From the NCBI GenBank assembly GCA_002269645.1, contig NIVC01000363.1, positions 558,001 through 622,000 of the forward strand: a stretch of 64,000 bases of DNA, written 5' to 3'. The position numbers and the translations under genes were made by a program. The notes under the pieces were generated by a model that was not told where the DNA came from, did no database searches, and worked only from the letters and a program-made list of their open reading frames with translations. Below, piece after piece: positions 35,385-64,000 of this stretch; position 1 is the first letter of the stretch, and the number at the start of each line of letters is the position of its first letter. The DNA is from Macrostomum lignano. Lineage: Eukaryota.

Positions 35385-35907
35385 CTGAGGCAGTGGCCCA
35401 GCAACTGGGGATCTGGGAGGCTGGCTCAGAAACTGGGGATCTGGGAGGCTGGCTCAGCAACTGGGGATCTGGGAGGCTGGCTCAGCAACTGAGGATCTGG
35501 GAGGCTGGCTCAGCAACTGAGGATCTGGGAGGCTGGCCTAGAAGGCCCAGAAACTGAGGATCTGAGAGGCTGGCCCAGCAACTGAGGATCTGGGAGGCTA
35601 GCCTAGCAAATGAGGATTTGGGAGGCTGGCCCAGCAACTGAGGATCTGGGAGGCTAGCCTAGCAAATCAGGATTTGGGAGGCTGGCCCAGCAACTGAGGA
35701 TCTGGGAGGCTAGCCTAGCAAATCAGGATTTGGGAGGCTGGCCTAGTAACTGAGGATTTGGGAGGCTGGCCCAGCAACTGAGGATCTGGGGGGCTGGCCC
35801 AGCAACTGAGGATCTGGGAGGCTGGCCCAGCAACTGAGGATCTGGGAGGCTGGCCCAGCAACTGAGGATCTGGGAGGCTGGCCCAGCAACTGAGGATCTG
35901 GGAGGCT
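35385..35907 (-). repeat. 28-bp minisatellite, copy 2 of the dispersed family (inverted)
   Basis: CTGGCCCAGCAACTGAGGATCTGGGAGG is the reverse complement of the unit at 20592. Confidence 0.95.
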
Positions 35908-46129: not shown

Positions 46130-47262
46130 TGAAGTACAGGTGTCTTGCCTGTGGTTGTCTAGAGGCCTTCAATAGGAACGCTGCCCCGGTGAAGTACAGT
46201 TGCTTGAGCTCCTCTGGGAAGTCTCCGGGTTGATCTAGTAGCGTTGGTAGTGCTGCCACCAGCTTCGCAGAGTCGCAGCCTTCGGTGAGGTGCTGAGCTC
46301 GTAGAAGCAAATAACTAAGACGAGAGAAAGAGACTCGCACTTCGTGCAGATTTAGCAGTTCTCGCGCAGAGGTGCCCACCGTCAGCAGTCCCTGCCGGGC
46401 TGGTGCGGGGTGAGAGCGAAAGTGCTAGCTTCGGGCGATCTGAGCTGGCCTGCTAGCTGATAGCAGGAACAATCAGAGCCAGAGGCAGTCACGCGCAAAG
46501 TCGGGAGTCTTGGAGTTCAACTTAAGCGTCAACTTGGCACACAACTTAGAGTTCGCTAGAAACGAAACGGAAGGAACGCTAGGAAAGCTTGGAAAGCTAG
46601 GAACGCGAGGAACGGTAGGAACGCTGAAAACGCAGAAACGAGAGGCTGAAACGGAAGGGCCGGTTAACGGAAGGAAAGAAAGGCTTGTCTGAGCCAAGCC
46701 AGGAGAGGGGCTGCATTTATAGGGAGGATCGATTGCACCATAGCACGAAAGGCCCCCGCTGAGAGTCATAAGTGACTCTGTTGCTATTTTTAGCAACAAA
46801 CAAGCGGGCCCTGCCTCAGAGGAGGCAAGGGGGGGTCCGGGCGCACGTGATCTCCCCATAAACACGAGCCCAGCGTACAATGATGAAATCATTGCACTTT
46901 GGACTAAAGAAGGAAGAGGGCCTTGTCATGTGACTGACTCACATGACAAGGGGAAAAGGCCCACAAGTGAAGGCACTCGTGACCGTGGGACCGGAAAACA
47001 GGAAGGCACTCCAAATTTGGAGATGCCTGACAGAGAACGAAACAGAGGCAGGCCAGACCAAGCTGTCTGGGCACTGCAAAAAGGGAAAGCGAGACAAAAG
47101 GGGCAAACGAGGACAAACAGACAGACAGACAAACGGGCAGAGGACAGGCCAGGGACAGGCGGGAGGGACAGGCAACTGCCCAGCGGCAGACAGAAACCTG
47201 GGGAGAAGGCGAGGGCAACAGCTGACTAGTGCGGCGCCTAACTAAACTAGCGACTCACTACA
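46130..47262 (-). repeat. 3' LTR
   Basis: No differences from 55182-56314 seen by eye; the ORF translations inside are identical. Minus-strand TATAAA at 46721-46716; internal 9-10-bp GGAACGCTA-type repeats at about 46574-46632. Confidence 0.97.
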
Positions 47263-47270
47263 CTCTCCCC
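47263..47270 (-). other. Polypurine tract GGGGAGAG
   Basis: Directly abuts the TG start of the 3' LTR. Confidence 0.85.
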
Positions 47271-47664
47271 GTTCAAATAAAGAGGCGGAGTGAAGCGGCG
47301 CGCGCTTTATTTAAAACAAAGTAAACGTGAATTTACTGACAAAAGAAAACACACAAAATTTCAAATGCGCTCGTGAAATTGCGCGACTGGCCAGGTCGTA
47401 AAGATAGTGGCCTGATACCGCGGGGGCGCCAACCCGCTAATAGCCTGCGCCTAACTATTCCTCGTGCTCCAGCCCGCAAAATTAGTGCTCGAATTTGGTG
47501 TGGGGGCGCCGGCCCACCCTAGAAATGGCGCCTAAATATTGCGCGGGCGATACCTGAATACACAAGCCAACCGGCTTAAAATTCCTGCATAAGGGCGCTT
47601 AACTAGCGCGGCAAACGGGGCAACTTCATTGTCAACAGGGCGTACATCAGCGTACGGCCGCCAA

Positions 47665-50600
47665 TCAGTCAAAATAGCACAGACGCGGAGTCATCAAGAG
47701 CATCGGCAGGTCTTCTTCCCCGCCGCCCATGAATCGGGCAACGCGGACGGCCGCCAGGTGGAGAGCGTACGGCCGGTTCGGCCGCTCCAGGTCGGGGCCG
47801 GCCAGGCCGACCGCCTCCGCGAATAACCGGCTCCTCTCCTCGGCCGTGGTTTGACGGAGCTCCGCCCAGATCGGGCCACCGAGGTCAACGATTTCTCCGC
47901 CTTGCCGAGCCGCTCTGACGAGTACAGCGCTTGTCAGGTTGGCGCCGGCAGCGATGACGGTAGCTCGGTATTCCGGTATTGGCGACTCCGTTTGAGTGCC
48001 GGTATCGAGCGTTTCCGCCGGACGTTCGGGCGATGGTGGCGGGGCCCTGGGCAGGGTGCGGCGCAGCGACGCGGCCAGGTCGGTCCAAACAGCTGAGGAG
48101 CATGCGGCCGCTCCCTGAGTGTCATCGGTCCAAGACATCGGAGACGGGGCCGCGTCGGGATGCCTGGCGTCGTCGAGATCCCCTCCGCGTTCATCTGTTC
48201 CGCCGGGCCTGCCATGGTGCTCCGACCCGACTCGCTCACGGGCCGCCGGCCGAGCCCCGTCGATGTCTGGAAGGGAATTGCGGACTTGGAGGCGGATGTC
48301 CGCCAAGCCCCGCATCACCTGCTGTTCCAGCTGCACGTAAGCCAAAGCGGCCGCGATCCGGTCGACCATGAGTGTCCGCGCAGTCGCGTCTGGCGATGGC
48401 GAGTCGCGCGTGAGGTCGATGACTTCGGGCGAGTGTCGTTGACCCCGAGCGGGGTGTTGAGCTGCATGGCTCTCCAGAACGGGCGAAGGGCTTCGCCTGG
48501 GTGCCGATGTTCGGAGTGGCCTCCCATTCCGCCTCTGGGGCTCGGGAGACGGCGTGCGACGGTGAGGGCGCCGATCAACCTGGCGCGTCGGCCTCGCCGA
48601 GCCGTTGCCTTCAGCCCTGAGTCTCCGGTTAATTGTCTCCAGCGGGCGCCGCGGGATCCCCATGGTCTCTGGCGAGACCGGGGTACCAGGTCGGCGCCGG
48701 CTACGGCTAGGCCGCCCTTGCTCCGCATCGGACGAGGAGCTTGAGCTCACGTGGAGCGGACGCTTGTGCATTTCTGCGCTGCAAGGTTTTAATTTGTGCA
48801 CACGCATGCGGGCGGTGCGACTAACGTACGTTTTGGCCCTAGGATCGCTAATCAGAAGCCTCTCCGGCGGCCTCCGATCCCTAACTGGCCTACCTACCAC
48901 TACTGGTATGGGAGACGCTTCCACCTGAGTGGTGCAAGGAGGTGGCGCAGGAGACTGCACCGCCGAAAAAGGTTCGGGAAGGGGGGACGCATGGACAGGT
49001 GAAAAAGAAGCAGCAGGTGCAGACGCATTCAAACCAGGCACACCATCATGGCGATCACCATACGGCAGTGGCTCACGCCGAAATGCACTTGCCTGGTTCG
49101 CTGGTGTCGTGACCGGTCCACCTCCTGGCTGCACATCCGGGATCGCCAACGGCCGGAAGCGCCACCGGAAGGCCGGCCATGCGTCATCATCATCATCGTC
49201 CTCGTCCGGATCGTCCTCCGGAATCGGTGTCAGAGTCGCGGGTCCTGCACCGTCCGGGGCATCAGTCAACCTGCAGCGCTTCTTGGCCTGGTCGACTTCT
49301 GGATCCGAAGTCAGCTGGTAGTCGGCATCAGGGACGAGTAGCAGATTCCGGCGATGGACTACTAGCTCGTCGCGCCTGGCCCGCGGGTTTGGCACTCTAC
49401 GGCGAATCTTGTAGACGACCTCGCCCTTGGGTTCGACTACCTCGTACAGCGCTTTGCGAGGTCGATGGAACTTCGCCGCTTCATCCGGTTCGAGCACCGG
49501 GTTGTTGAGGAAAACCAGGTCACCAGGTTGGAGCTTCTTGGCAGCGGGCAGGTTCGAATAGTGCTCGTCGCGCAGTTGCTGATGCAGATGCAGGCGTTCT
49601 TTGGCTAGCTCAGTCGCTTCGTCCAAACGGCGCTGGAAGTCCTTGACATAGTCAGGCAGATTGGCATACTCCGGCAGCTTCTTGATCGCGTTGTCGATTG
49701 GTAGTCGAAAGTCTCGACCAAACACCAGGTAGTGAGGCGTGAAACCTGTCACCGGGTGTACACTAGAGCGGAGCGCCATCAAGCAGGCTGGGAGGAAGGT
49801 GTCCCAGTCGTTATGGTTGCGCTCGAGGAGGCAGGTGAGGACACTCTTCAGCTGCTTGTTGAGGTTCTCGACTTGCCCATTAGAAGCTGGGTTGTACGGT
49901 GTTGTCGTCGTATGCCGGATGCCAAACAGGTCGCAGAACTTCTTGAAAGCTGAGCCAGTGAAATTGGTTCCTTGATCAGTGTGTATCCAGCATGGTACAC
50001 CAAAGTCAGGGATCAAGCGCTCCTGCAGGATCTTGATGACCGTCTTGGCTTTCTGGTTCCTCATCGGATAGGCGAACGGATACTTCGACGTCGCGTCGCA
50101 TAGCGTCAAGATGTAGCGGTTCCCGCTCTTGCTCTTCTGGGCGATAGGGCCTACTACATCGCAATGTACTCTTCCCAGAACTTCGCACACAGGGAAGCTC
50201 TGTACAGGTACTCGGTCTCGTCTTCGGGATTTACTTTCAAGACAGGCGCGGCACTTACTGATAAAGTTCTCGGTGACACGGGCTAATCCGGGCCTCCAGA
50301 ATCGTTCACGTAGCCGCTTCAACGTCTTCGTCTGGCCGAGGTGTCCACACAGTGGCGAACTGTGGAGCTCCTGGAGCACCTGGGCATCAAGAGACTCAGG
50401 CAGGACAACCTTCGGGGACTGCTGGCCATCAGTCAGATCGATCATCAGCAGGCCGTTGTCCTCTAGCAGATTATCATAATATCCGAGCAGATTCCGCTGC
50501 TCCTTCGTCAGTCGCAACCGGGCGTCGAACTCAGGCTTCGGGCTTTGTTCTCGACCAAGTTGAGCACGTAGCTGATTGCTCGGTCGGCGCGCTGCGCGTC

Positions 50601-53600
50601 GACAAACTGTTGCCGCGTCATCGGCATCCTCATAAAATCAGTGAGCACGGCGCGGCATGGCTGAGGGTTCCGGATTTCCTCAGTCTCCGCTTCTGTGGCT
50701 CGCAGTTGATCACGCGACTCCGTCTTGTCGGCGTCAGGATTAGGTCGCTCCGAGGGACTTTGTCTCACAACGTCGGCGTACGATCGCTGATCTCGTTTCG
50801 AAGTTCTCATCGTCGCTCTCTTGACAGGAATTTCCGCAGCTGGAGCAGTGCACTTGCCTCCACTGCACAGCCCAGGCGACTCTTGGCTGTAGGGCGAGAC
50901 GCAACACGTGAAGCACGCCTCGTCGCAGGCAGCCGTAGCCGTCGGCTCGATCATCGTCGTCATTGGGTGAGTCTTCTCCAGCACTGGGCGGTGTCGCAAA
51001 GGGGGACTCGACTTTCCGCACAGGCGATGAGCAGCTGTCTGTCGGCTCGGGGGACAGAGCGTTGACCTTGCAGCCGTCGCGAGAGTCTGGCCTCTGTCAA
51101 CACGGCGAGAACTCTCAGCGCAAAACTCCGGGGAGTTGAACTTACATTGCTGGTCTGGATTCGCGTTGTGGGCTGTCATCAGAAGGGCTGCTTGTTCAGT
51201 GGCCTCTGAGTCGTGGTCCATGGGCGTCTCCAGATTCCGAGACCCGCAGTCTTGGACATCATCAAGGAGGTCTACGTCAGCAGTGGCCTCCGAGGGTTTG
51301 TCCGGGCGAATCTCCAAGTAACGGCAGTCGGCGTGGGCGTCGCTGCGGAGGGCTGAGGTGTCAGTGGCCTCCGGGTTGGTGTCCAAACCGGTCTCCAGGC
51401 GTTGACTGCAGCGATGGTCGTCGTGCTGAAGGACTGCTGGCGCAGTGGCCTCCAGGTCTTCGGCCAGGGCAGTTTCGGCCTCCTTGTTGCGAGTGTGGAC
51501 CTTCTTCGGGGCTGCTCTTGCAGTGGCCTCACGGTGGTGTCCAATTCCGGCTCCAGCTGGTGTCATCACGTCGGGCTGCAGAACGGGTGCTCAGCAGTCG
51601 GCCGTGCTCGAAGTCAACCGGTGGTGTCTCCGGGCGTCTTGACAGGGCGTCAGCGTTGGCGTGGTCCTTGCCTTTGCGATGGTGAAGCTGGAAGCGGAAC
51701 TCGCTTAATCGCTCAATCCAACGGCCCAAGATGCCTGTGACCTGCGTCTGGTTCAGCAGCCACAGCAAGGCCCGATGGTCAGAACGAACTTCAAACTTCT
51801 TGCCGATTAAATAATGACGGAAATGTCGCATCGCGTCCACGATTGCAAGCAGCTCTTTCTTCGTGACCGTGTAGCGCTTCTCAGGATCACGAAGCTTCCG
51901 GCTAAAGAATGCAATTGGGCGCTCGACGCCGTCGGATTGCCGTTGTCCAAGACAAGCGCCTATGCGAATGTCTGAGGCATCCGTGTCTAGGACAAACTTC
52001 ACATTAGGATCTGAGTTAAACTCAGGCAGAGCGAGAACTTCAGTCGAACACAACTTCTTCTTCAACGTGTCGAACGCTACCTGGTGCTCATCAGTCCAAT
52101 GCTGCCGCAGGCTGCCGATGTCCTTTCGAGTCAGGGCATGTAGCGGCGCAGCAAATCCAGCGTAGCCGTTGACAAACTTGTGGTAGTAATTGGCGAGGCC
52201 TAGGAATTGTCTCAGTTGAGTAACGGACTGTGGCACGGGCCAATCACGGATCTGCGCAATCTTGTCCTCACAGGTCTTCAGGCCGTCGGGAGTCACGACG
52301 TGGCCTAGATAATGCAGCTCCTTGAGGAACAAATGGCACTTCTTCGGCTTGACCTTGAGGTTGGCTGCGATAATCCGCTGGAGTACAGTCCGCAGGTTGT
52401 CCAGCTGCTCCTCGAAGGTCACAGAGTGCACCACGATGTCATCCATGTAGCCAAGCGCAGTCTTTGGCGTCAGGCCGTCCAGGAGCTTATTGATGCAACG
52501 CTGAAAGCTGCCTGGACTATCGTGGAGACCCATCGGTAGAACATTGAAACAGAATTGTCCGCGGTCAATCACAGAGAACGCCGTCAGGTGCTGATCGCAG
52601 TCGCGCAGCGGGATCTGCCAGAATCCTTGAGCGAGATCCAAGCTAGAGTACCACTGGGCACCACGCAGCTTCGCGAAGGTCTCCTGAATGTGCGGCAGCG
52701 GGTACGGGTGGTACACACACTTGTCGTTGAGAGCTCTGAAGTCATGCACCAGCCTGATGTTGCCGTCCTTCTTGGGCACTATCAGCATTGGCGAGTTGTA
52801 GCTAGAATAAGCCGGGCGAATGATGTGCTTCGCCAGCATCTCGTCTAGCAGGGCGTCTAGCTTGTCCTTCAGATGAGGCGGGATCCTGCGCGGTGGTAGC
52901 GCAACTGGTGTCCGATCCTTCAGGATGATCTCGTGGGTCACCAAGTGTGTCAGGCCAGCGTCTAGCAGATGCTTCGAGAAGGCTGCTTGACACTCAACTA
53001 GTAGATCTCGCACTCTCTGTCGTTGATCTTCGGACAGCTCGCTGTTGATCTCGACTTCCTCTAGCCAAGCTGTGCTGGACTCTTCAGGGCTCCTTGGCAA
53101 ATGTCGCACTTCAGGTTCCGGCGTCTCTTCCAGGTACATCAGGTCGGCAGTTCTAAGTGGTGTCGCAACACCAACGCGGATGCCCGACTGCAGGAACACC
53201 TCACAGTCAGCAGTGTTGACGACCTCGATGTAGCCTCGACCTTCAGGCATAGTCATCAGAGCTGGAGCTGCTTCCAGAGTGTTGCAGCTGGGGTGCAGTC
53301 TCGACTTCACCAGCTCGACGATTGATGGCGATCCTCGGTTCTCGGGGTGGCCGACATCCAACTGGACGGCCAACAGCGCTGAACTTCTCGGCGGCAGAGT
53401 GCACTTCTCGGAGGTGTACACCCGGCATGATTGAAGCTCACGGCGCGAATAGCGAACGGGAATGCACGCGCCATTGTTGAACTTTAACATTCCTTGAGCA
53501 AAGTCCAAGTTCTGGCAGTGTTCACGCATGAAATTAATACCAAGCAAATTTTCACAATCGGTGACCGTGACCAGGAATTCGGTGTCCGCGACGACATCAC

Positions 53601-54026
53601 CGAACTCCACCGGGATGATCACCTTACACGCAAGGGGTAGCTGCGTACCGTCGTACATGGTCACGCAATCCGGGATAGCATGCGATATGATACAACGAGG
53701 CATCCGACGTCTAACATTGGCCCAGGTCGACGCTCCAAGAAAGTTTTTCCGACTGCCGCTGTCTAGTAGGAAAGGGACTTCTCGGCCCGCCAATCGGCCG
53801 GTGACGTACGGATCAGCCTCACGCGCATGGATTTTTTATCATCGGAGGTGTCCACGAAACCTCCGCACTCAGCCTCACTTACTGATGAGCGACTGTCGGA
53901 CTGGGCATTGGCGTCTGCGCAGCCGACATCCTCTTCTTCTGGTGAGCGTTCGGAGTCTGCCAAGTAGCCGGGGCTTGGGCTCTGCGGAGGGCGTTGCCGT
54001 GGGCGCTCTCCGTCTCGCCGTTTCCC
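47665..54026 (-). CDS. pol: pol polyprotein: protease, RT, RNase H, repeat spacer, integrase, ~370-aa C-terminal extension; interrupted by frameshifts in this assembly
   Basis: PR FLLDSGS; RT YPLPHIQE, LDLAQGFWQI, YMDDIVV; RH LDTDASD, KELLAIV, DHRAL, NADALSR; IN H-H-C-C zinc finger, CDVVGP, TDQGTNF, GQVENLN. Frame breaks near 53835, 51600-51530 and 50545. Confidence 0.95.
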
Positions 54027-55047
54027 TGGTTCTGGCGTAACGGGCACTGTGCATTGCGATGACCAGGCTGACCACAGCCATAGCAGATCATGGCTTTCGC
54101 CGGCGGACTCGTTTCTGCTGCTGGTCACGCTGCACCAGGTTGTCTAGCAGTCGCTGCTGTTTCTCTAGCAGATCAGTCAGAGCTAGGAGAGCTTGAGCGG
54201 TGGCGTCGGGCGTCGGGTCACCGTCGCGCTCCCCGTTCAGCATGCGAACCGGGGGTTGAGCAGAGCGCTGCGCCAGTTCCTTGGCGCCTTCCAGACGATG
54301 GAGTTCTCGAATAGCGGCCAGCAGATTGTTCGGGCGGACCCAATAGAGCCGCTCGCGCAGATCTGGTGTCGTCCTGATGCCAGCTAGGAACTGATCAGCC
54401 AGCTCCCGCTCTCGATCCTCAGGGTGCATTCGAGGGTACGCTCGCTCTCCCAAGGTGCGCAGGGCATCAGCGTACTCTTCTGCTGACTCGTTCTTGCCTT
54501 GCTGACGGCGCCTCAGCAGCTCTCGATATTCATCCGCGCCACCGTGGCGGGCGAATCTCTCGATCAGTCGCTGCCTGACCTCCTCGTAGCCAGCATAGCG
54601 TGGGAGGTGCATACTGAGCAGAGCCGGGTAAGCGGTTGCCAGATCTAGACTCGCAACGAGGTGCTGCTTCATCTCGATCGGGTCTTCGATACGCTCCATC
54701 TCGCAGCGCTGCTCGAACGCGGCGAGCCAGACGTGGATGTCCTGGCTGGGCGTGTACTTTACAATCTTAACAGATTTGCTTACCGGCCGCTCCATCTGCT
54801 GCTGCAGAGCTGCCATCATCGTTCTCACATCCTGGGGCCTGATGTTCTGGCCGAGGTCGTCCAAACCTGGCAGAAGCTCGTCTGGCGGGTCTTCGGACAC
54901 TTCGCTTCTCGCACTTCGCCGCGGCATCTGCTGACCAAGGTCGTTGACCGCTGCTGCTGCGGCAGCCGATGCTGCTGCAGGTCTCGAACTGCTGATGTGC
55001 TGATCCAGCCGGCTGCTGCACCGGCTCTCTTCTCTCTCGTTAAACAT
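53879..55047 (-). CDS. gag: gag: capsid-like domain and CCHC zinc knuckle; one frame break at 54124-54091
   Basis: ORF 55047-54088 contains QQGKNESAEEYADALRTLGERAYP. CYGCGQPGHRNAQC (Cx2Cx4Hx4C) lies in the -1 frame and ends at TAA 53881-53879. Confidence 0.9.
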
Positions 55048-55156
55048 TTCAAATTAGTAGAATAGCCGAATTCTTACTCGAAAGAGCGGTTGTCTTGGGT
55101 GTAGTAGTAGTCGAATCTTGACTTGTCGGATCCCAGATAGTCGTGTCGTTGACTCG

Positions 55157-55181: not shown

Positions 55182-56314
55182 TGAAGTACAGGTGTCTTGC
55201 CTGTGGTTGTCTAGAGGCCTTCAATAGGAACGCTGCCCCGGTGAAGTACAGTTGCTTGAGCTCCTCTGGGAAGTCTCCGGGTTGATCTAGTAGCGTTGGT
55301 AGTGCTGCCACCAGCTTCGCAGAGTCGCAGCCTTCGGTGAGGTGCTGAGCTCGTAGAAGCAAATAACTAAGACGAGAGAAAGAGACTCGCACTTCGTGCA
55401 GATTTAGCAGTTCTCGCGCAGAGGTGCCCACCGTCAGCAGTCCCTGCCGGGCTGGTGCGGGGTGAGAGCGAAAGTGCTAGCTTCGGGCGATCTGAGCTGG
55501 CCTGCTAGCTGATAGCAGGAACAATCAGAGCCAGAGGCAGTCACGCGCAAAGTCGGGAGTCTTGGAGTTCAACTTAAGCGTCAACTTGGCACACAACTTA
55601 GAGTTCGCTAGAAACGAAACGGAAGGAACGCTAGGAAAGCTTGGAAAGCTAGGAACGCGAGGAACGGTAGGAACGCTGAAAACGCAGAAACGAGAGGCTG
55701 AAACGGAAGGGCCGGTTAACGGAAGGAAAGAAAGGCTTGTCTGAGCCAAGCCAGGAGAGGGGCTGCATTTATAGGGAGGATCGATTGCACCATAGCACGA
55801 AAGGCCCCCGCTGAGAGTCATAAGTGACTCTGTTGCTATTTTTAGCAACAAACAAGCGGGCCCTGCCTCAGAGGAGGCAAGGGGGGGTCCGGGCGCACGT
55901 GATCTCCCCATAAACACGAGCCCAGCGTACAATGATGAAATCATTGCACTTTGGACTAAAGAAGGAAGAGGGCCTTGTCATGTGACTGACTCACATGACA
56001 AGGGGAAAAGGCCCACAAGTGAAGGCACTCGTGACCGTGGGACCGGAAAACAGGAAGGCACTCCAAATTTGGAGATGCCTGACAGAGAACGAAACAGAGG
56101 CAGGCCAGACCAAGCTGTCTGGGCACTGCAAAAAGGGAAAGCGAGACAAAAGGGGCAAACGAGGACAAACAGACAGACAGACAAACGGGCAGAGGACAGG
56201 CCAGGGACAGGCGGGAGGGACAGGCAACTGCCCAGCGGCAGACAGAAACCTGGGGAGAAGGCGAGGGCAACAGCTGACTAGTGCGGCGCCTAACTAAACT
56301 AGCGACTCACTACA
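55182..56314 (-). repeat. 5' LTR
   Basis: Duplicate of 46130-47262. Confidence 0.97.
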
Positions 56315-56618: not shown

Positions 56619-57344
56619 GCCATGACCAAACTTGAGCAGCACTGCAATGCCATACTGGCTACTCTGACCTACCTGAAGCGTGTCTGTCTAACAAGGGCTG
56701 CCCAGTCGCAGTTGGAGAGTGTGCAGTACTTGCTAATAAGTCAGCATGGCGAAATGACAACATCTGTTAAACTGCTTTGTCAGGATTTGTATAGAAAGTA
56801 AATTAAATGCAGTTTATTACATTTAAATAAAAAACATTAAGGGCATCGCCATCCTCCCAGATTATCAATTTCTGGACCAGCCACTCAGATCCTCAGTTTC
56901 TGGGCCAGCCCTCCCAGATCCTTAGTTGCTGGGTCAGCCTCCCAGATCCTCAGTTGCTGGGCCATCCTCCCAGATCCTCAGTCGCTGGGCCGGCCTCCCA
57001 GATCTTTAGGTTGCTAGGCCAGCCTCCCAGATCCTCAGTTGCTGGGCCAGCCTTCCAGATCCTCAGCTGCTGGGCCAGCCTCCCAATACTCAGGCTAGGT
57101 CGCCCAAGAATCCCACCAGTTTCATCACTGTTCCTAAACTGAACTCATTCCCCGCCGCCCACGCAGGCAGTCGAGCCAGTTCGAGTCCCAGTTACTAGCC
57201 GCCAACTCCAGCTTAGCAAGCCTCTGCTCCTCGCTAGACCGCCGCATCCATCTGGCTGTTAGATTTGGTGATCAATTCGATTTAGAAGACAACAGCTTGA
57301 ACGATTGGACTCGACTGATGGCGGATTATCGCGAGACAATATCG
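56619..57344 (+). CDS. Internal exons of an unidentified, predicted helical protein
   Basis: Exons 56619-56797 and 57167-57344 join in phase: AMTKLEQHCNAILATLTYLKRVCL...LYRK|QSSQFESQLL...DWTRLMADYRETIS, with CAG acceptors and GTAAAT/GTAAGC donors. Further candidate exons at 57731-57828 and 58122-58157. Confidence 0.6.
56852..57086 (+). repeat. 28-bp minisatellite, copy 3 of the dispersed family
   Basis: Same unit as at 20592 and 35385, more diverged. Confidence 0.9.
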
Positions 57345-57828
57345 GTAAGCGCAATTCGCTTAAAAGGTAGTTTTTTCGGTTGGCATCCTGGTGAATAAAA
57401 CAAGGGTGAAATTCACAGCCACATTCATTTGGGCTTCGCATTCATGAGGGCCAACTCCCTAAGTTGCGAAGGCCTTTGTACACTCTGTGTGTGGTCAGGA
57501 GTCAGTGAAATGGGCAGAATTGCCTCAGCGCTAGTTGGGAGATGATGCCTTTGAACGTGAATATTTATATTGTGTAATGGCGACCTAAATAAGACTTGCC
57601 TAAACAAAATTAACATAATTTTGGGTATACGGCAGGAGTAAATATAACTGTATTATTAAGGCTAAAAGCCTCGTCATCTTGTTAGTACTTAGTTATTAGT
57701 GTTGCACATTTATGCAAGCCTGTGTTGCAGGCCATCAGTGATGCCTCCTCTAATTGTTGTACCAAAGGCTCTGCAAATTCGCAAGTTACCATAGGCTTTG
57801 TCCGTCTTTCCACTACACACACACACAA

Positions 57829-57900
57829 GTGAGGGAATCGAACCCGGGACTTAAGCTCAAGCGGGGGAGGCGTTGGCGTTGCTACTGAACTATCGGGTCA
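57829..57900 (-). mobile_element. tRNA-derived SINE-like element with a (TG)n tail
   Basis: Minus strand A box TAGTTCAGTAG and B box GGGTTCGATTCCC, followed by TGTGTGTGTG. Confidence 0.5.
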
Positions 57901-58482
57901 AATAAGTCAAGTGTTGGAGCTTTCTTGGCATCGTTTCTTAGATAGACCAATGTTTACTTTTAATTGCGTATATCGTTTCTGCTGTTCACGCGTGTGTATG
58001 AATTTCATGAACCCAACTAGCCTGACTACCTCCGGCTGACTTGCATCTATCTGCGCTGCACAGTGTATATAGGTTAATTGAACCGGTCTTGAATTGCGAA
58101 TATCATTTTTTCTCTCTCCAGAGAAGCTTTTAAAGATTTCTCTAACGGCGACTGTTGGTAAGAATTATAATTTCATATTGATTCATTGTTTCCTATTTTA
58201 CTATGTTGTCAGTGTTAGAATATCTTTATTCTTTCTTTATTCTTGTAATCCCTGTTTTATTTAATTGAACATTAAGATACCTTAGTTCCTTATTTTATTA
58301 TGTTTTTGTAGCTAAGGATAGTAGGTGCAGTCTGCAACCATAATTGATAATCACTCATAACGAAGTAGCTTTTATTCGGATATTATTATCTGTGTACTCG
58401 TAGCGCTTGTTGTTTTAAAAACTTTGTCGCTTTTGTTAATCGGTCAATTTGATTTTTTATCGGTCTCTCAGTGGGCACCGCT

Positions 58483-59460
58483 ACACCCTATCCCACTACC
58501 CCCTACCCACTACCCCCTATCTCTCTACCCCTATCCCACTACCCCCTATCCCACTTCCCCCTACCCGCTACCCCCCCTATCCAACTACCCCTAGACTCAC
58601 TACCCCTATCCCGCTAACCCCTACCCACTACCCCCTATCTCTCTACCCATATCCCGCTACCCCCTATCCAACTACCCCCTATCCAACTACCCCTAGACTC
58701 ACTACCCCTATCCGCTACCCCTACCCACTACCCCCTATCTCTCTACCCCTATCCCACTACCCCCTATCCCACTTCCCCCTACCCGCTACCCCCTATCCAA
58801 CTACCCCTAGACTCACTACCCCTATCCCGCTACCCCCTACCCACTACCCCCTATCTCACTACCCCTAGACTCACTACCCCTATCCCGCTACCCCCTACCC
58901 ACTACCCCCTATCTCACTACCCCTATCCCGCTACCCCCTAAACCACTACCCCCTATCTCACTACCCCTATCCCGCTACCCCCTAAACCACTACCCCCTAT
59001 CTCACTACCCCTATCCCGCTACCCCCTACCCACTACCCCCTATCTCACTACCCCTAGACTCACTACCCCTATCCCGCTACCCCTACCCACTACCCCTATC
59101 TCTCTACCCCTATCCCACTTCCCCCTACCCGCTACCCCCCTATCCAACTACCCCTAGACTCACTACCCCTATCCCGCTACCCCCTACCCACTACCCCCTA
59201 TCTCTCTACCCCTATCCCACTTCCCCCTACCCGCTACCCCCCTATCCAACTACCCCTAGACTCACTACCCCTATCCCGCTACCCCCTACCCACTACCCCC
59301 TATCTCACTACCCCTAGACTCACTACCCCCTAAACCACTACCCCCTATCTCACTACCCCTAGTCTCACTACCCCTACCCGTTACCCCCTACCCGCTACCC
59401 CCAATCTCACTAACCTCTATCCCACTACCCCCTCTCCGCCACCCCTTCTCCGCTGACACC
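58483..59460. repeat. C-rich compound minisatellite (CTACCCC(C)TATCCC...)
   Basis: Tandem CTACCC-based units. Confidence 0.95.
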
Positions 59461-59935
59461 TACCTTATCTGTCCTATTAATCTAACCGTCGTATTTACGC
59501 GTAATAAATTGGCCATATTAGTAAATGCCTAGTTACCGGTTACTCATTAGTGTCGTCATTTCTCAGAACCAGTGTAATTTTCTCCTTTAGCAAAGCTCAC
59601 ATTCCTTTCTCTTTTGAAGCGTGTACGAAACACGTGTCTGAAAATGCAGGATCGGCCAAAGTCCTTTATGGGCATTTTTTCTTCGCATTCCCCCCTCTCT
59701 CTCTCTCTCAACATCTGGCCGCTGTGCAGTTGCCAGCTTGGATTGGTGCAGTCGGTCTATTGGCTGTGCACGGGCAAGCGCGCTGCTGAAGGGTCGGCTT
59801 GAGGGGAAACGAACAACTCTCCACACTTTGTTAGGCTTTCTTGGGTGGGGGGTCTGGATGCTTGGGGATGAGGATTGGGAGAGGGGAGAGGCTTCGAACT
59901 GGCTTAGCAATAAAAATATTGGGGGACAAGCAGCC

Positions 59936-61350
59936 ATGCGGCAAGGAAGTAAAGACAGACTGTATCGTGCACAGCTTCAGTCATTGAACGAATACGATAG
60001 AGGCCATCAGAAAACGGCTGCCAAGAAGTGAATTGGTCAGGATTACCTTGGCTGTACCTGCTAATCCCAAGCTATTTCCGTAATTCCTTGATTTTTTCAG
60101 TTACGTATATACAGTATAAGGTACCCGCTTACCTATTGCCAATTAATTTCAGAGCATCATTGACGCCTGCCGGTCACCGAGAGTTGAAACTCACAGGTAT
60201 GGCTGATTGGGGATGGAGATTTCGGGATGCCAGATGGGGATTTCGGGATGCCAGATGGGGATTTCGGGATTTCAGATGCGGATTTCGGTATTCCAGATGG
60301 GGATTTCGGGATTCCAGATGGGGATTTCGGGATTCCAGATGGGGATTTTGGGATTCCAGATAGGGATGTCGGGATTCCAGATAGGGATTTCGGGATCGGG
60401 ATTCCAGATAAGGATTTCGGGATTCCAGATAAGGATTTCGGGATTCCAGATAGGGATGTCGGGATTCCAGATAGGGATTTCGGGATTTCAGATAAGGATG
60501 TCGGGATTCCAGATAGGGATTTCGGGATTTCAGATGGGGATTTTGGGATTCCAGATGAGGATTTTCGGGATTAAATATGTGAATATGAATATTTCGAAAG
60601 ATTTGAAGATTTTGGAATTCGAATAGGGGATTTCGAGTTTTATATTCCAGCCAGGCAAACACCTCGCCGCATCCCCGTCGATTTTCAGTCGCGAACGGCT
60701 GCGCAGCTCGCTGCCTTCGGAGCTCGAAGGACTGCACGTCGCCGGATCTGAATCGGAAGACGAAAACAAAGTGAACGAACTTGTTGACGCCGCCGGTAGT
60801 CAGCTGAGATCCACTCTGGTTTTTATGGAGCCCTCTGACTCTGAGTCTGCTTGCGCGGCGCCGGCAAACACTAGCCGATTGCTTCGGTCTTCCTCTCCTG
60901 CGTCTTCGGCCGCTTCGTCTGATTCGTCTTCTTCCTCCGGAGCTTCATCTCTGGTTGCTAACGCGTCCTCCACCTTGGCCATCGCCCCCAACGACAAAGG
61001 CGACGATGAAGCTGAATTAAACAATCGATCGGAGGACTCGACTCAGACTGAAGAGGAAGTCACCGAAGAGTTCGTTAAAGTAGACGGTGTACTTTATAAG
61101 CGTCGAATATTGAGAAGACGGCGTCAGAAAGTTGTGCGAACTCGAACTGTGGTGTCGTCGGCTGAACCGCCCGTGGTGACCGTGGCTGCGACATCTGCTG
61201 CTCCTGACCATCAGGAGTCACCGCCGCCCCCTCCACTGCCTCCCAGACTTAACAAATCAGCTAATAACACTGATGAAGACGGTACTGATGCTGGATCAGG
61301 TGTTATGCTAAGACGGCCTGAGACTGCGGCCAATGACCAGATTCGATTGG
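59936..61350 (+). CDS. Unidentified Ser/Glu-rich protein, probably continuing beyond the window
   Basis: GCCATG at 59936; phase-consistent exons 59936-60027, 60153-60196, 60655-61350 (MRQGSKDRLYRAQLQSL...ELKLTGKHLAASPSIF...EEVTEEFVKVDGVLYKRRILRRRRQK), donor GTGAGT at 61351. It may instead belong to the gene at 56619. Confidence 0.6.
60205..60570. repeat. 21-bp minisatellite (GGGATTTCGGGATTCCAGATR)n
   Basis: Intronic tandem units. Confidence 0.95.
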
Positions 61351-61424
61351 GTGAGTTGTGTCTGTAAGCTTGATTGTTGAGCACTTCATTGGGTAATTTC
61401 TCGTCGTCCCATTCACTCTACCCT

Positions 61425-62700
61425 CACTCAAATCGCCCCTGAACCCTTACTGAAAATCGCCCCTGAACCTTCATTAAGAATCGCCCATGAAGCCTCACTA
61501 AGAATCGCATCTGAAGCCTCACTAAGAATCGCATCTGAAGCCTCACTAAGAATCGCATCTGAACCCTCACTAACAATCGCCCATGAAGCCTCACTAAGAA
61601 TCGCATCTGAACCCTCACTAAGAATCGCCCATGAAGCCTCACTAAAAATCGCATCTGAACCCTCACTAACAATCGCCCCTGACGCCTCACTGAGAATCGC
61701 CCCTGAACCCTCACTGAGAATCTCCCCCGAAGCCTCACTAAGAATCGCCCCTGAAGCCTCACTAAAAATCGCCCCCAAGCCCTCACTGAGAATTGCCCCT
61801 GAACCCTCACTGAGAATCTCTCCCGAAGCCTCACTAAGAATCGCCCATGAAGCCTCACTAAGAATCGCCCATGAAGCCTCACTAAAAATCGCATCTGAAC
61901 CCTCACTAACAATCGCCCCTGACGCCTCACTGAGAATCGCATCTGAACCCTCACTAAGAATCGCCCATGAAGCCTCACTAAAAATCGCATCTGAACCCTC
62001 ACTAACAATCGCCCCTGACGCCTCACTGAGAATCGCCCCTGAACCCTCACTGAGAATCTCCCCCGAAGCCTCACTAGGAATCGCCCCTGAAGCCTCACTA
62101 AAAATCGCCCCCAAGCCCTCACTGAGAATTGCCCCTGAACCCTCACTGAGAATCTCTCCCGAAGCCTCACTAAGAATCGCCCATGAAGCCTCACTAAGAA
62201 TCGCCCATGAAGCCTCACTAAGAATCGCATCTGATCCCTCACTAACAATCGCCCCTGACGCCTCACTGAGAATCGCATCTGAAGCCTCACTAAGAATCGC
62301 CCCTGACGCCTCACTGAGAATCGCCCCTGAACCCTCACTAACAATCGCCCCGAAGCCTCACTAAGAATCGCCCCTGAACCCTCACTGAGAATCTCCTCCG
62401 AAGCCTCACTAAGAATCGCCCCTGACGCCTCACTGAGAATCGCCCCTGAACCCTCACTAACAATCGCCCCCAAGCCCTCACTAAGAATCGCCCCTGAACC
62501 CTCACTAAGAATCGCCCCTGACGCCTCACTGAGAATCGCCCCTGAACCCTCACTAAGAATTGCCCCGAAGCCTCACTAAGAATCGCCCCTGAACCCTCAC
62601 TAAGAATCGCCCCTGAACCCTCACTAAGAATCGCCCCTGAACCCTCACTGAGAATCGCCCCTGAACCCTCACTGAGAATCTCCCCCGAAGCCTCAATAAG
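61425..62700. repeat. 24-bp minisatellite (CCTCACTAAGAATCGCCCCTGAAS)n
   Basis: About 53 units; source of ORFs 61424-62553. Confidence 0.95.
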
Positions 62701-63214
62701 AATTGCAGAATCTCATTTTATAGAGTGGCTCACCAATGGAAAATAAGTGCCGGAAACGCATTAAAATAAATAAAGGCTTCAGTTTTATAATTGAATTATA
62801 TGATACCAAGAGCCCAAGATATAGATAGACCTGTGACACAAAACTATAAAATTATTAATAAACCAATGCGCTTCGGAGTTAAAAGTTATGTGAAAATATT
62901 GCCACTGACCTGTTTATATCTGACCGCATTCAGTCATGCCGCATTTCCTACTGCCATGGCTGATTCTGCCAGTTACCATATGCTATCTGTATATCTGTCT
63001 CCATCCATTACCCTTTACTAAAGTAGCTCTACGAAATGAATCTGGTTTCTCGTAATTTGCGCTGTCAGTTCTGAGTTTAGTTTATGCCTGTTTACGTAAT
63101 TGCGCCTGATTCCGACCTTTGGTCTGAGAAATTTTCTCAATTACGCTAATAGATTTTCCGTTGCTAAATAGTCTAAGTAATGTAATATCTTGTCTGATAC
63201 TTTAAAGTATGGTT

Positions 63215-64000
63215 TTGTGTCTATTTGATATTTTCCGTTTCTCTGCATTTGATCTAGGGTGAGATTTCCGTATCTCTGTGTTGTGTCTAGGGTGAGATTT
63301 CTTTTTCTCTGCTATAGGTCTAGGGTGAGATTTCAGTGTCTGCGTTGAATCTATGGTGAGATTTCCGTGTCCATTTATTGGATCTAGGATGGGATTTCCG
63401 TGTCTATTAATTGGGTCTAGGGTGAGATTTCCGTGTCCATCCATTGGATCTAGGATGGGATTTCCGTGTCTATTCATTAGATCTAGGTGAGATTTCCGTG
63501 TCTCTGCATTTGATCTAGGGTGAGATTTCCGTGTCTCTGCATTTGATCTAGGGTGAGATTTCCGTGTCTCTGCAATTAATCTAGGGTCAGATTTCCGTAT
63601 CTCTGTGTTGGGTCTAGGGTGAGATTTCCTTGTCTCTGCTATAGGTCTAGGGTGAGATTTCAGTGTGTCTGCGTTGGATCTAGGGTGAGATTTCCGTGTC
63701 CATCCATTGGATCTAGGATGGAATTTCCGTGTCTATTCATTAGATCTAGGGTGAGATTTCCGTGTCTCTGCATTTGATCTAGGGTGAGATTTCCGTGTCT
63801 CTGCATTTGATCTAGGGTGAGATTTCCGTGTCCATCCATTGGATCTAGGATGGGATTTCCGTGTCTATTCATTAGATCTAGGGTGAGATTTCCGTGTCTC
63901 TGCATTTGATCTAGGGTGAGATTTCCGTGTCTCTGCATTTGATCTAGGGTGAGATTTCCGTGTCCATCCATTGGATCTAGGATGGGATTTCCGTGTCTAT
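63215..64000. repeat. ~33-bp minisatellite (CTAGGGTGAGATTTCCGTGTCTCTGCATTTGAT)n
   Basis: Tandem units running to the end of the window. Confidence 0.95.

Follow-up and report, generated by a model that had tools for sequence, protein, structure and literature searches.

A selected and used splice acceptor ahead of a swappable accessory gene in a Ty3/gypsy retrotransposon of Macrostomum lignano

Structure of the element and its sibling copies

The window, i.e., the whole 64,000-nt stretch of contig NIVC01000363.1 that was analyzed, carried a young Ty3/gypsy LTR retrotransposon on the minus strand of the Macrostomum lignano sequence, and all features below lie on that strand. The 5′ LTR (55182–56314) was 1133 nt long, ran from TG to CA and was 100% identical to the 3′ LTR (46130–47262) over 1133 nt in blastn. 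The element was flanked by a 4-bp target-site duplication (TATA), a TGG start resembling a primer-binding site followed the 5′ LTR, and the polypurine tract (PPT) was located at 47263–47274. The LTR termini, target-site duplication and PPT are those of a Ty3/gypsy element, as are the domain order PR-RT-RH-IN and the Ty3-like RT, and pol matched Ty3 Gag-Pol at 2e-74. The element may belong to the Gmr1/Osvaldo clade. AATAAA occurred once in the interior (47306–47311), just upstream of the PPT and outside the 3′ LTR, and TATAAA was present in the LTR at 55768–55773. Dense minisatellites (periods of 16–34 nt) occupied window positions 1–46000 and 56800–64000, and one unit was found again, inverted, at ~20850, 35400–35900, and 56910.

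The gag gene (53879–55047) encoded a CCHC knuckle and contained a candidate −1 slippery site, G GGA AAC (54020–54026), which we take to be of the −1 slippery type; the gag and pol frames overlapped in sibling copies. A candidate donor, GTAAGT (D1, 53877–53882), overlapped the gag stop and a Val-Ser of the pol frame. The protease-RT-RNase H part of pol (51532–53835) was recognized by Pfam (RVT_1 1.7e-32, RT_RNaseH 3.5e-36), with the protease below the cut-off (E 0.0046). It was followed by a spacer of ~360 codons (50511–51590) that matched nothing in Pfam, contained a repeated 10-nt unit and was interrupted by several frame breaks in the window copy, and then by the integrase (49330–50400), comprising H2C2, core and C-terminal part (rve 7.7e-16, Integrase_H2C2 1.4e-15). 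After the integrase, the same frame included 370 further codons, termed X. Beyond the integrase lay a conserved nucleotide block (49060–49124) around a GC donor (D2, CAG/GCAAGT, GC at 49092–49091), an acceptor TTGCAG (A1, 48779–48784), and the X coding region (47665–48771), which would encode 368 aa from its own ATG in frame with pol. A second acceptor, TTCCAG (A2, 48267–48272), was located inside X.

The gag frame of the window copy was broken near 54090–54124, and the original prediction needed this break (54124–54091) to be an error. It was indeed private to the window: gag was open in most siblings, 25 of the 41 copies with the donor motif (window included) were open for at least 380 codons to the stop, and 19 of 21 close copies differed from the window at the break. 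The window pol was also broken near 53835, 51495–51590, and 50535, which the prediction had not mentioned. In total, the window copy departed from most of the 21 close copies at eight places, seven of them in pol. Since these private differences coexist with identical LTRs, they suggest assembly errors.

A search with 124 candidates yielded 39 other scored copies, and further copies were obtained via gag (14), via an exact motif (32 new places) and as wider regions (10). The 5′ flank could be seen in 31 copies, which had 30 distinct flanks, and all copy counts are lower bounds. Contigs were taken from 8 of 24 listed runs, presumed to be RNA; such contigs show presence, not absence. No match to the LTR motif of the element was found in five supplements of PMC12801592, which deals with the LTR elements of this worm, and neither "splic" nor "ORF" appeared in the accessible part of its main text.

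Acceptors, the GC donor and insertions without the intron

An acceptor with AG at 48780–48779 and an exon start at 48778 had been predicted, and the sequence read accordingly. A1 is a working splice site, used in genomic copies that have no intron. The copy on contig C1341 lacked exactly 49092–48779, the 314-nt D2-A1 intron inside the pol frame, and had the target-site duplication CATT. The same exact loss was seen with another X type on C1069 and C2766, which shared flanks and were counted once. The copy on C3306 lacked exactly 49092–48267 (D2-A2) and had the target-site duplication TACC. The pieces lost in these three insertions began with GCAAGT (D2) and ended with TTNCAG (A1 or A2). Because the GC-AG ends were exact, we infer that the insertions were retrotransposed from spliced RNAs.

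The acceptor was also conserved among siblings, as the prediction had proposed to check: of the 42 unspliced copies, which came from a BLAST across the site (38) or via gag (four), 40 had TTNCAG at A1. Set aside from this count were 11 loci without the region, comprising seven truncated, three X-less, and one D2-A2 copy. A further 24 of 24 motif-picked copies had TTNCAG at A1. The peptide across A1 varied (PCS, HFS, PFS, HSS, or NFS) while TTNCAG stayed, and therefore selection acted on the nucleotides. TTNCAG occurred only five times in the 7.9-kb interior, with A1 and A2 being two of them; A1 was better than chance and was used in the intron-less copies. The AT-rich patch said to precede the acceptor was present (GC 0.30 in the 20-nt window at 48802), but a patch at ~50481 of the same open reading frame was lower still. 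The branch-point-like sequence did not hold as a fixed motif, since its letters varied between subfamilies and the TT-CAG was invariant.

D2 read GCAAGT in 37 of 39 copies and GTAAGT in one, and was joined in another; L033 had GT instead of GC. Third codon positions were variable in 1 of 22 columns around D2 vs. 114 of 179 upstream (Fisher p 5e-8, with sequences that are not independent). The near-invariant block of 65 nt at 49060–49124 was broader than a donor requires. A stable hairpin at D2 was not found (z 0.52). The phases of D2, A1, and A2 were 0, 2, and 1, respectively, and thus translation beyond the D2-A1 and D2-A2 joins would depart from the X frame and end after 23 and 110 codons. 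D2 was the sole demonstrated partner of A1, in a join that is out of frame with X. The AG of A2 was intact in 18 of 18 copies covering it, and, were a leader to be added at A2, an in-frame Met at ~48139 would yield just the C-terminal domain.

The D2-A2 joint (49093–48266) was present in contigs of runs X13 and X3. It was not counted as fresh splicing: the X13 contig had 12 differences there vs. 14 for the C3306 copy, which also shared variant letters at 49207, 49222, and 49234. Run X14 was not accepted as spliced RNA only, as it covered pol too. No D2-A1 joint (49093–48778) was seen in the contigs of the eight runs, which are presence-only data.

The copies on C1069 and C2766 (L054 and L055) were short elements consisting of LTR, integrase tail, D2-A1 join, X, and LTR, with no gag or primer site; their jump from the LTR to 49712 was rejected as a splice. 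Three X-less copies (L067, L069, and L072 on C2839, C981, and C511) had different flanks and represented three insertions. In this X-less subfamily, a pol stop lay at the position of A1 and the TT of the acceptor was lost, and D1 and D2 were retained. A loose end at window position 47314 in runs X1, X2, X13, X8, and X3 resembled the X-less 3′ region by eye.

The X protein family

Thirteen X types were recognized, which is a lower bound; they measured 350–470 aa from the ATG after A1 and were 22–63% identical. The ATG was located 8 nt after A1 in 13 of 13 types. The dN/dS of X was 0.07–0.43 in nine pairs, two C-terminal values being saturated. Among the window copy, L018, and L025, the dS of X was 1.3–1.8, vs. 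0.04 for the integrase end in the two pairs tested. This indicated that recombination directly behind A1 had placed old alleles of X on young backbones, and X was swapped between near-identical backbones. Replacement of X by unrelated DNA was rejected, since the types are homologous proteins. The core finding is a selected and used acceptor before a swappable non-Env accessory gene.

X comprised an Arg/Ser/Pro-rich disordered part followed by a conserved helical domain of ~95 aa, and a helical bundle was predicted with confidence for the last ~95 residues (pLDDT mostly >90). Neither a signal peptide nor a clear membrane span was found in any of the 13 types in a simple Kyte-Doolittle scan, where the best 19-aa hydropathy was 0.75–1.62 and the N-termini were hydrophilic. 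A VIDLT-like motif occurred in 11 of 13 types and a strict TQT in 7 of 13; these presumably resemble SUMO-binding and dynein-LC8-binding motifs. When 1.84 billion representatives were searched with a profile, four proteins matched, all labeled M. lignano. There was no Pfam match for X, no match for the X of the window as a lone query, no usable match in the Atlas, and exact searches for 10 other forms of X gave no match. In the PDB and viral libraries no fold match reached E 0.001, and the best Z was 6.2 in a wide fold search with only the last 150 aa; neither result shows a new fold.

X was in the pol frame in nearly all copies, and intact copies had frames of 2139 and 2206 codons. L107–L109 (C46, C321, and C4188) carried a deletion between D2 and A1, which left X open but out of the pol frame. 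They were rejected as evidence, as a common flank made the three loci a single insertion.

Possible routes to the expression of X

The TTNCAG motif, the starts of public transcript models and the ends of contigs placed spliced-leader trans-splicing first. We consider it evenly balanced whether X is a stand-alone protein made from the ATG 8 nt past A1, probably through trans-splicing of the host leader. About 30% of M. lignano genes are trans-spliced, the leader is 35 nt long and ends in ATG, and [T/C]TNCAG is the leading motif where host RNAs are trans-spliced, according to the accessible part of PMC8629364. A1 has this motif next to a start codon. Four public transcript-based models contained X alone, and all began within 10 nt of A1 (two at the ATG, one at the first full codon past A1 and one a codon after the ATG); none was of the window's X type. 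The annotation from which models of this kind come splits transcripts at trans-splice leader peaks (PMC5730564, accessible part). However, three of the four starts were not exactly at A1, and for two a D2-A1 cis splice is just as good an explanation.

Contigs ended at 48779 in at least two of the eight runs (X2 and X4), which is the branch position expected for an upstream piece whose final G follows a letter other than A, such as a leader with TG at its end; the branch points expected for D1 and D2 are 48778 and 48781, respectively. These ends are a weak hint of a leader, as they fit a branch at 48749 or a phase-0 donor at 54783 equally well. Runs X1, X8, and X10 passed A1 unbroken, and no leader-to-A1 junction was found among the loose ends listed for the contigs of the eight runs. 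The loss of the acceptor TT together with X in the X-less copies, which yet keep D1 and D2, was counted for the leader. Trans-splicing favors acceptors without an upstream donor (PMC8629364, accessible part), but the cis donor D2, a weak GC donor, was used 314 nt upstream of A1. The retention of X in the pol frame also counts against a leader, as a separate gene would not need the frame.

If the leader is used, the unspliced RNA would yield Gag and, by −1 frameshift, Gag-Pol-X, while some transcripts would take the spliced leader at A1, discard everything upstream and become a short X mRNA. Such a leader-capped mRNA would have no primer site and would not be copied back into the genome. D2 would compete in cis for A1 and A2, and both joins would end pol early and remove X. 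X-less copies might perhaps be supplied with X in trans.

The alternative that survives best, though rather unlikely, is an internal promoter in the integrase tail, from which a short non-coding exon ending at D2 would be spliced to A1, with X read from its own ATG. It would account for D2-A1 being the only A1 join demonstrated and is consistent with the 65 nt conserved around D2 at the nucleotide level with no stable hairpin. In the subfamilies of the public models P0001 and P0002, moreover, the frame before D2 had a stop 28 codons back and no Met, which would leave a complete open reading frame from the X ATG. The env promoter of the Oikopleura elements Tor3b/4b likewise lies in or after pol (PMC4402516, accessible part). 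However, the D2-A1 joint was unseen in the contigs of the eight runs, the C1341 copy carried it on a full-length RNA, and D2 was retained in X-less copies.

The original prediction itself, a splice from D1 at the gag stop to A1 that would produce a 759-aa Gag-X, appeared improbable. Much of its basis stood: the GT at 53882–53881 overlaps the gag stop, D1 and A1 are both in phase 2 and give the joined length by arithmetic, A1 is real, gag is open to the stop in most copies, X is selected and in the pol frame, and Cer1 offers a precedent for the logic. What was not supported was D1 as the partner of A1. GTAAGT was found at D1 in 28 of 28 covering copies, but the gag stop and the overlapping pol Val-Ser fix its letters and explain its conservation. 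The +6 position of D1 varied, and D1 persisted in elements without X. GTAAGT occurred three times and GT[AG]AG 17 times in the 7.9-kb interior, so an excess over chance was not shown. The invariant ATG would also be left unexplained.

The D1-A1 join was seen neither in genomic copies nor in public proteins, and the proposed search for an RNA junction (53883–48778) gave no joint in the contigs of the eight runs, which is weak evidence as contigs cannot prove absence. None of the cis parts (LTR, primer site, leader, and PPT) would be missing from a D1-A1 RNA, and therefore the absence of any D1-joined copy beside three D2-joined insertions counts moderately against Gag-X. Joined copies were sought genome-wide by exact patterns (the D1 end followed by non-G, and the A1 exon after non-G), and none was found. 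The first pattern gave three matches, which were rejected as gag ends of a related family because none aligned to the element; at two of these loci no gag or pol frame was among the open reading frames listed. The second gave four matches, two point variants and two unrelated. The exact-motif search gave 68 matches, and of its 32 new places, 24 belonged to the family and had an acceptor that was not joined, while eight were unrelated repeats. No Gag-X was present among the public protein matches of 192–823 or 824–2350 aa, nor in the profile search. P0004, a public model of 950 aa, was rejected as evidence for Gag-X; it strings together RNase H, the gag start, the integrase tail and part of X, and looks like a gene-prediction chimera.

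It is quite improbable that X exists only as the protease-cut end of Gag-Pol-X, with D2-A1 and D2-A2 splicing acting as an attenuator by which pol would end early or the RNA would be targeted for decay. The frames of 2139 and 2206 codons in intact copies agree with this, as does the exit of both known joins from the X frame, but it fails on the ATG beside A1, the joint loss of acceptor and X, and the transcript models of X alone. A CERV-like multi-exon mRNA, in which a phase-0 gag donor at 54783 (GTAAGC or GTGAGT) would join a 32-nt exon (49124–49093) read in another frame, as is CERV exon 4, and then D2-A1 to bring the Gag N-terminus in frame with X, is very improbable: the frame arithmetic agrees, the AG at 49126–49125 was invariant (20/20) and 19 of the 21 representatives that have D2 showed 26–49 open codons ahead of it in the alternative frame, but that AG has no pyrimidine tract, the joint was absent from the run contigs and the genome, and the conserved block is symmetric around D2 rather than limited to the exon.

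Comparison with known elements and implications

Oikopleura is a trans-splicing host, and errantivirus env (Drosophila gypsy/ZAM) is made from a spliced subgenomic RNA. Like that env, X is a third module before the 3′ LTR that is reached by splicing (PMC4402516, accessible part); unlike it, X lacks a signal peptide and any clear membrane span and is fused in the pol frame. The leader donor, too, is unconserved here in contrast to errantiviruses, the site at 55077 being lost in L035–L037. The env of Tor3b/4b is likewise a third ORF in a host with trans-splicing, and is made from a subgenomic RNA with its start in or after pol, as is proposed for the X subgenomic RNA. Unlike X, however, it is expressed from an internal promoter with no splicing involved, its product is a membrane glycoprotein, and "trans-splic" was absent from the accessible part of that article (PMC4402516).

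The closest logic was found in Cer1 of Caenorhabditis elegans, in which exons of the Gag frame are joined by splicing to a non-Env ORF after pol, at a TTTCAG acceptor (PMC10309623, accessible part). The CERV mRNA carries SL1 at its 5′ end and its exon 4 is read in another frame (PMC10309623), and its product is needed for export of the genomic RNA (PMC10309623, PMC3315495, accessible parts). Fusion of a Gag peptide to a non-Env protein by splicing is thus already known, and the predicted fusion has a precedent, although CERV does not contain the full Gag. In both elements a fast-evolving non-Env ORF lies between integrase and the 3′ LTR, sharing the polyprotein frame, behind a conserved TTNCAG acceptor (TTTCAG/TTGCAG in Cer1), in a host with a spliced leader, and the splice sites must be skipped for genomic RNA. 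Unlike in CERV, no gag join was seen here in the genome or in the presence-only contigs, X starts with an ATG of its own at the acceptor, and its alleles have moved from one backbone to another. The searches gave no CERV match to X, the profile search matching only the four M. lignano proteins. The arrangement also resembles operon-type trans-spliced host genes, which have [T/C]TNCAG just before the start codon on a longer precursor (PMC8629364, PMC5730564, accessible parts); unlike in these, A1 lies inside a continuous retrotransposon pol frame with a cis donor upstream.

On its composition, its motifs and the analogy with CERV, we tentatively suggest that X may be a nuclear accessory that aids the survival or nuclear exit of unspliced genomic RNA; this is possible, but the balance is clearly against it. 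That a leader releases the mRNA of a nuclear accessory from inside the pol frame in an operon-like manner, with ancient alleles swapped as in a silencing arms race, is a plausible though somewhat doubtful view of the whole.

No report of a spliced leader releasing an internal retrotransposon ORF was found in the openly accessible literature. The known routes to third proteins of retroelements are cis-splicing, internal promoters, frameshift and read-through; if true, release of an internal ORF by a host spliced leader would be an added route, and would explain how downstream non-Env ORFs are expressed without an evident donor in trans-splicing hosts. Genomic copies without the intron provide a record of splicing without RNA data. 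X is an uncharacterized, selected and swappable accessory family, in a worm that offers transgenesis and RNAi.
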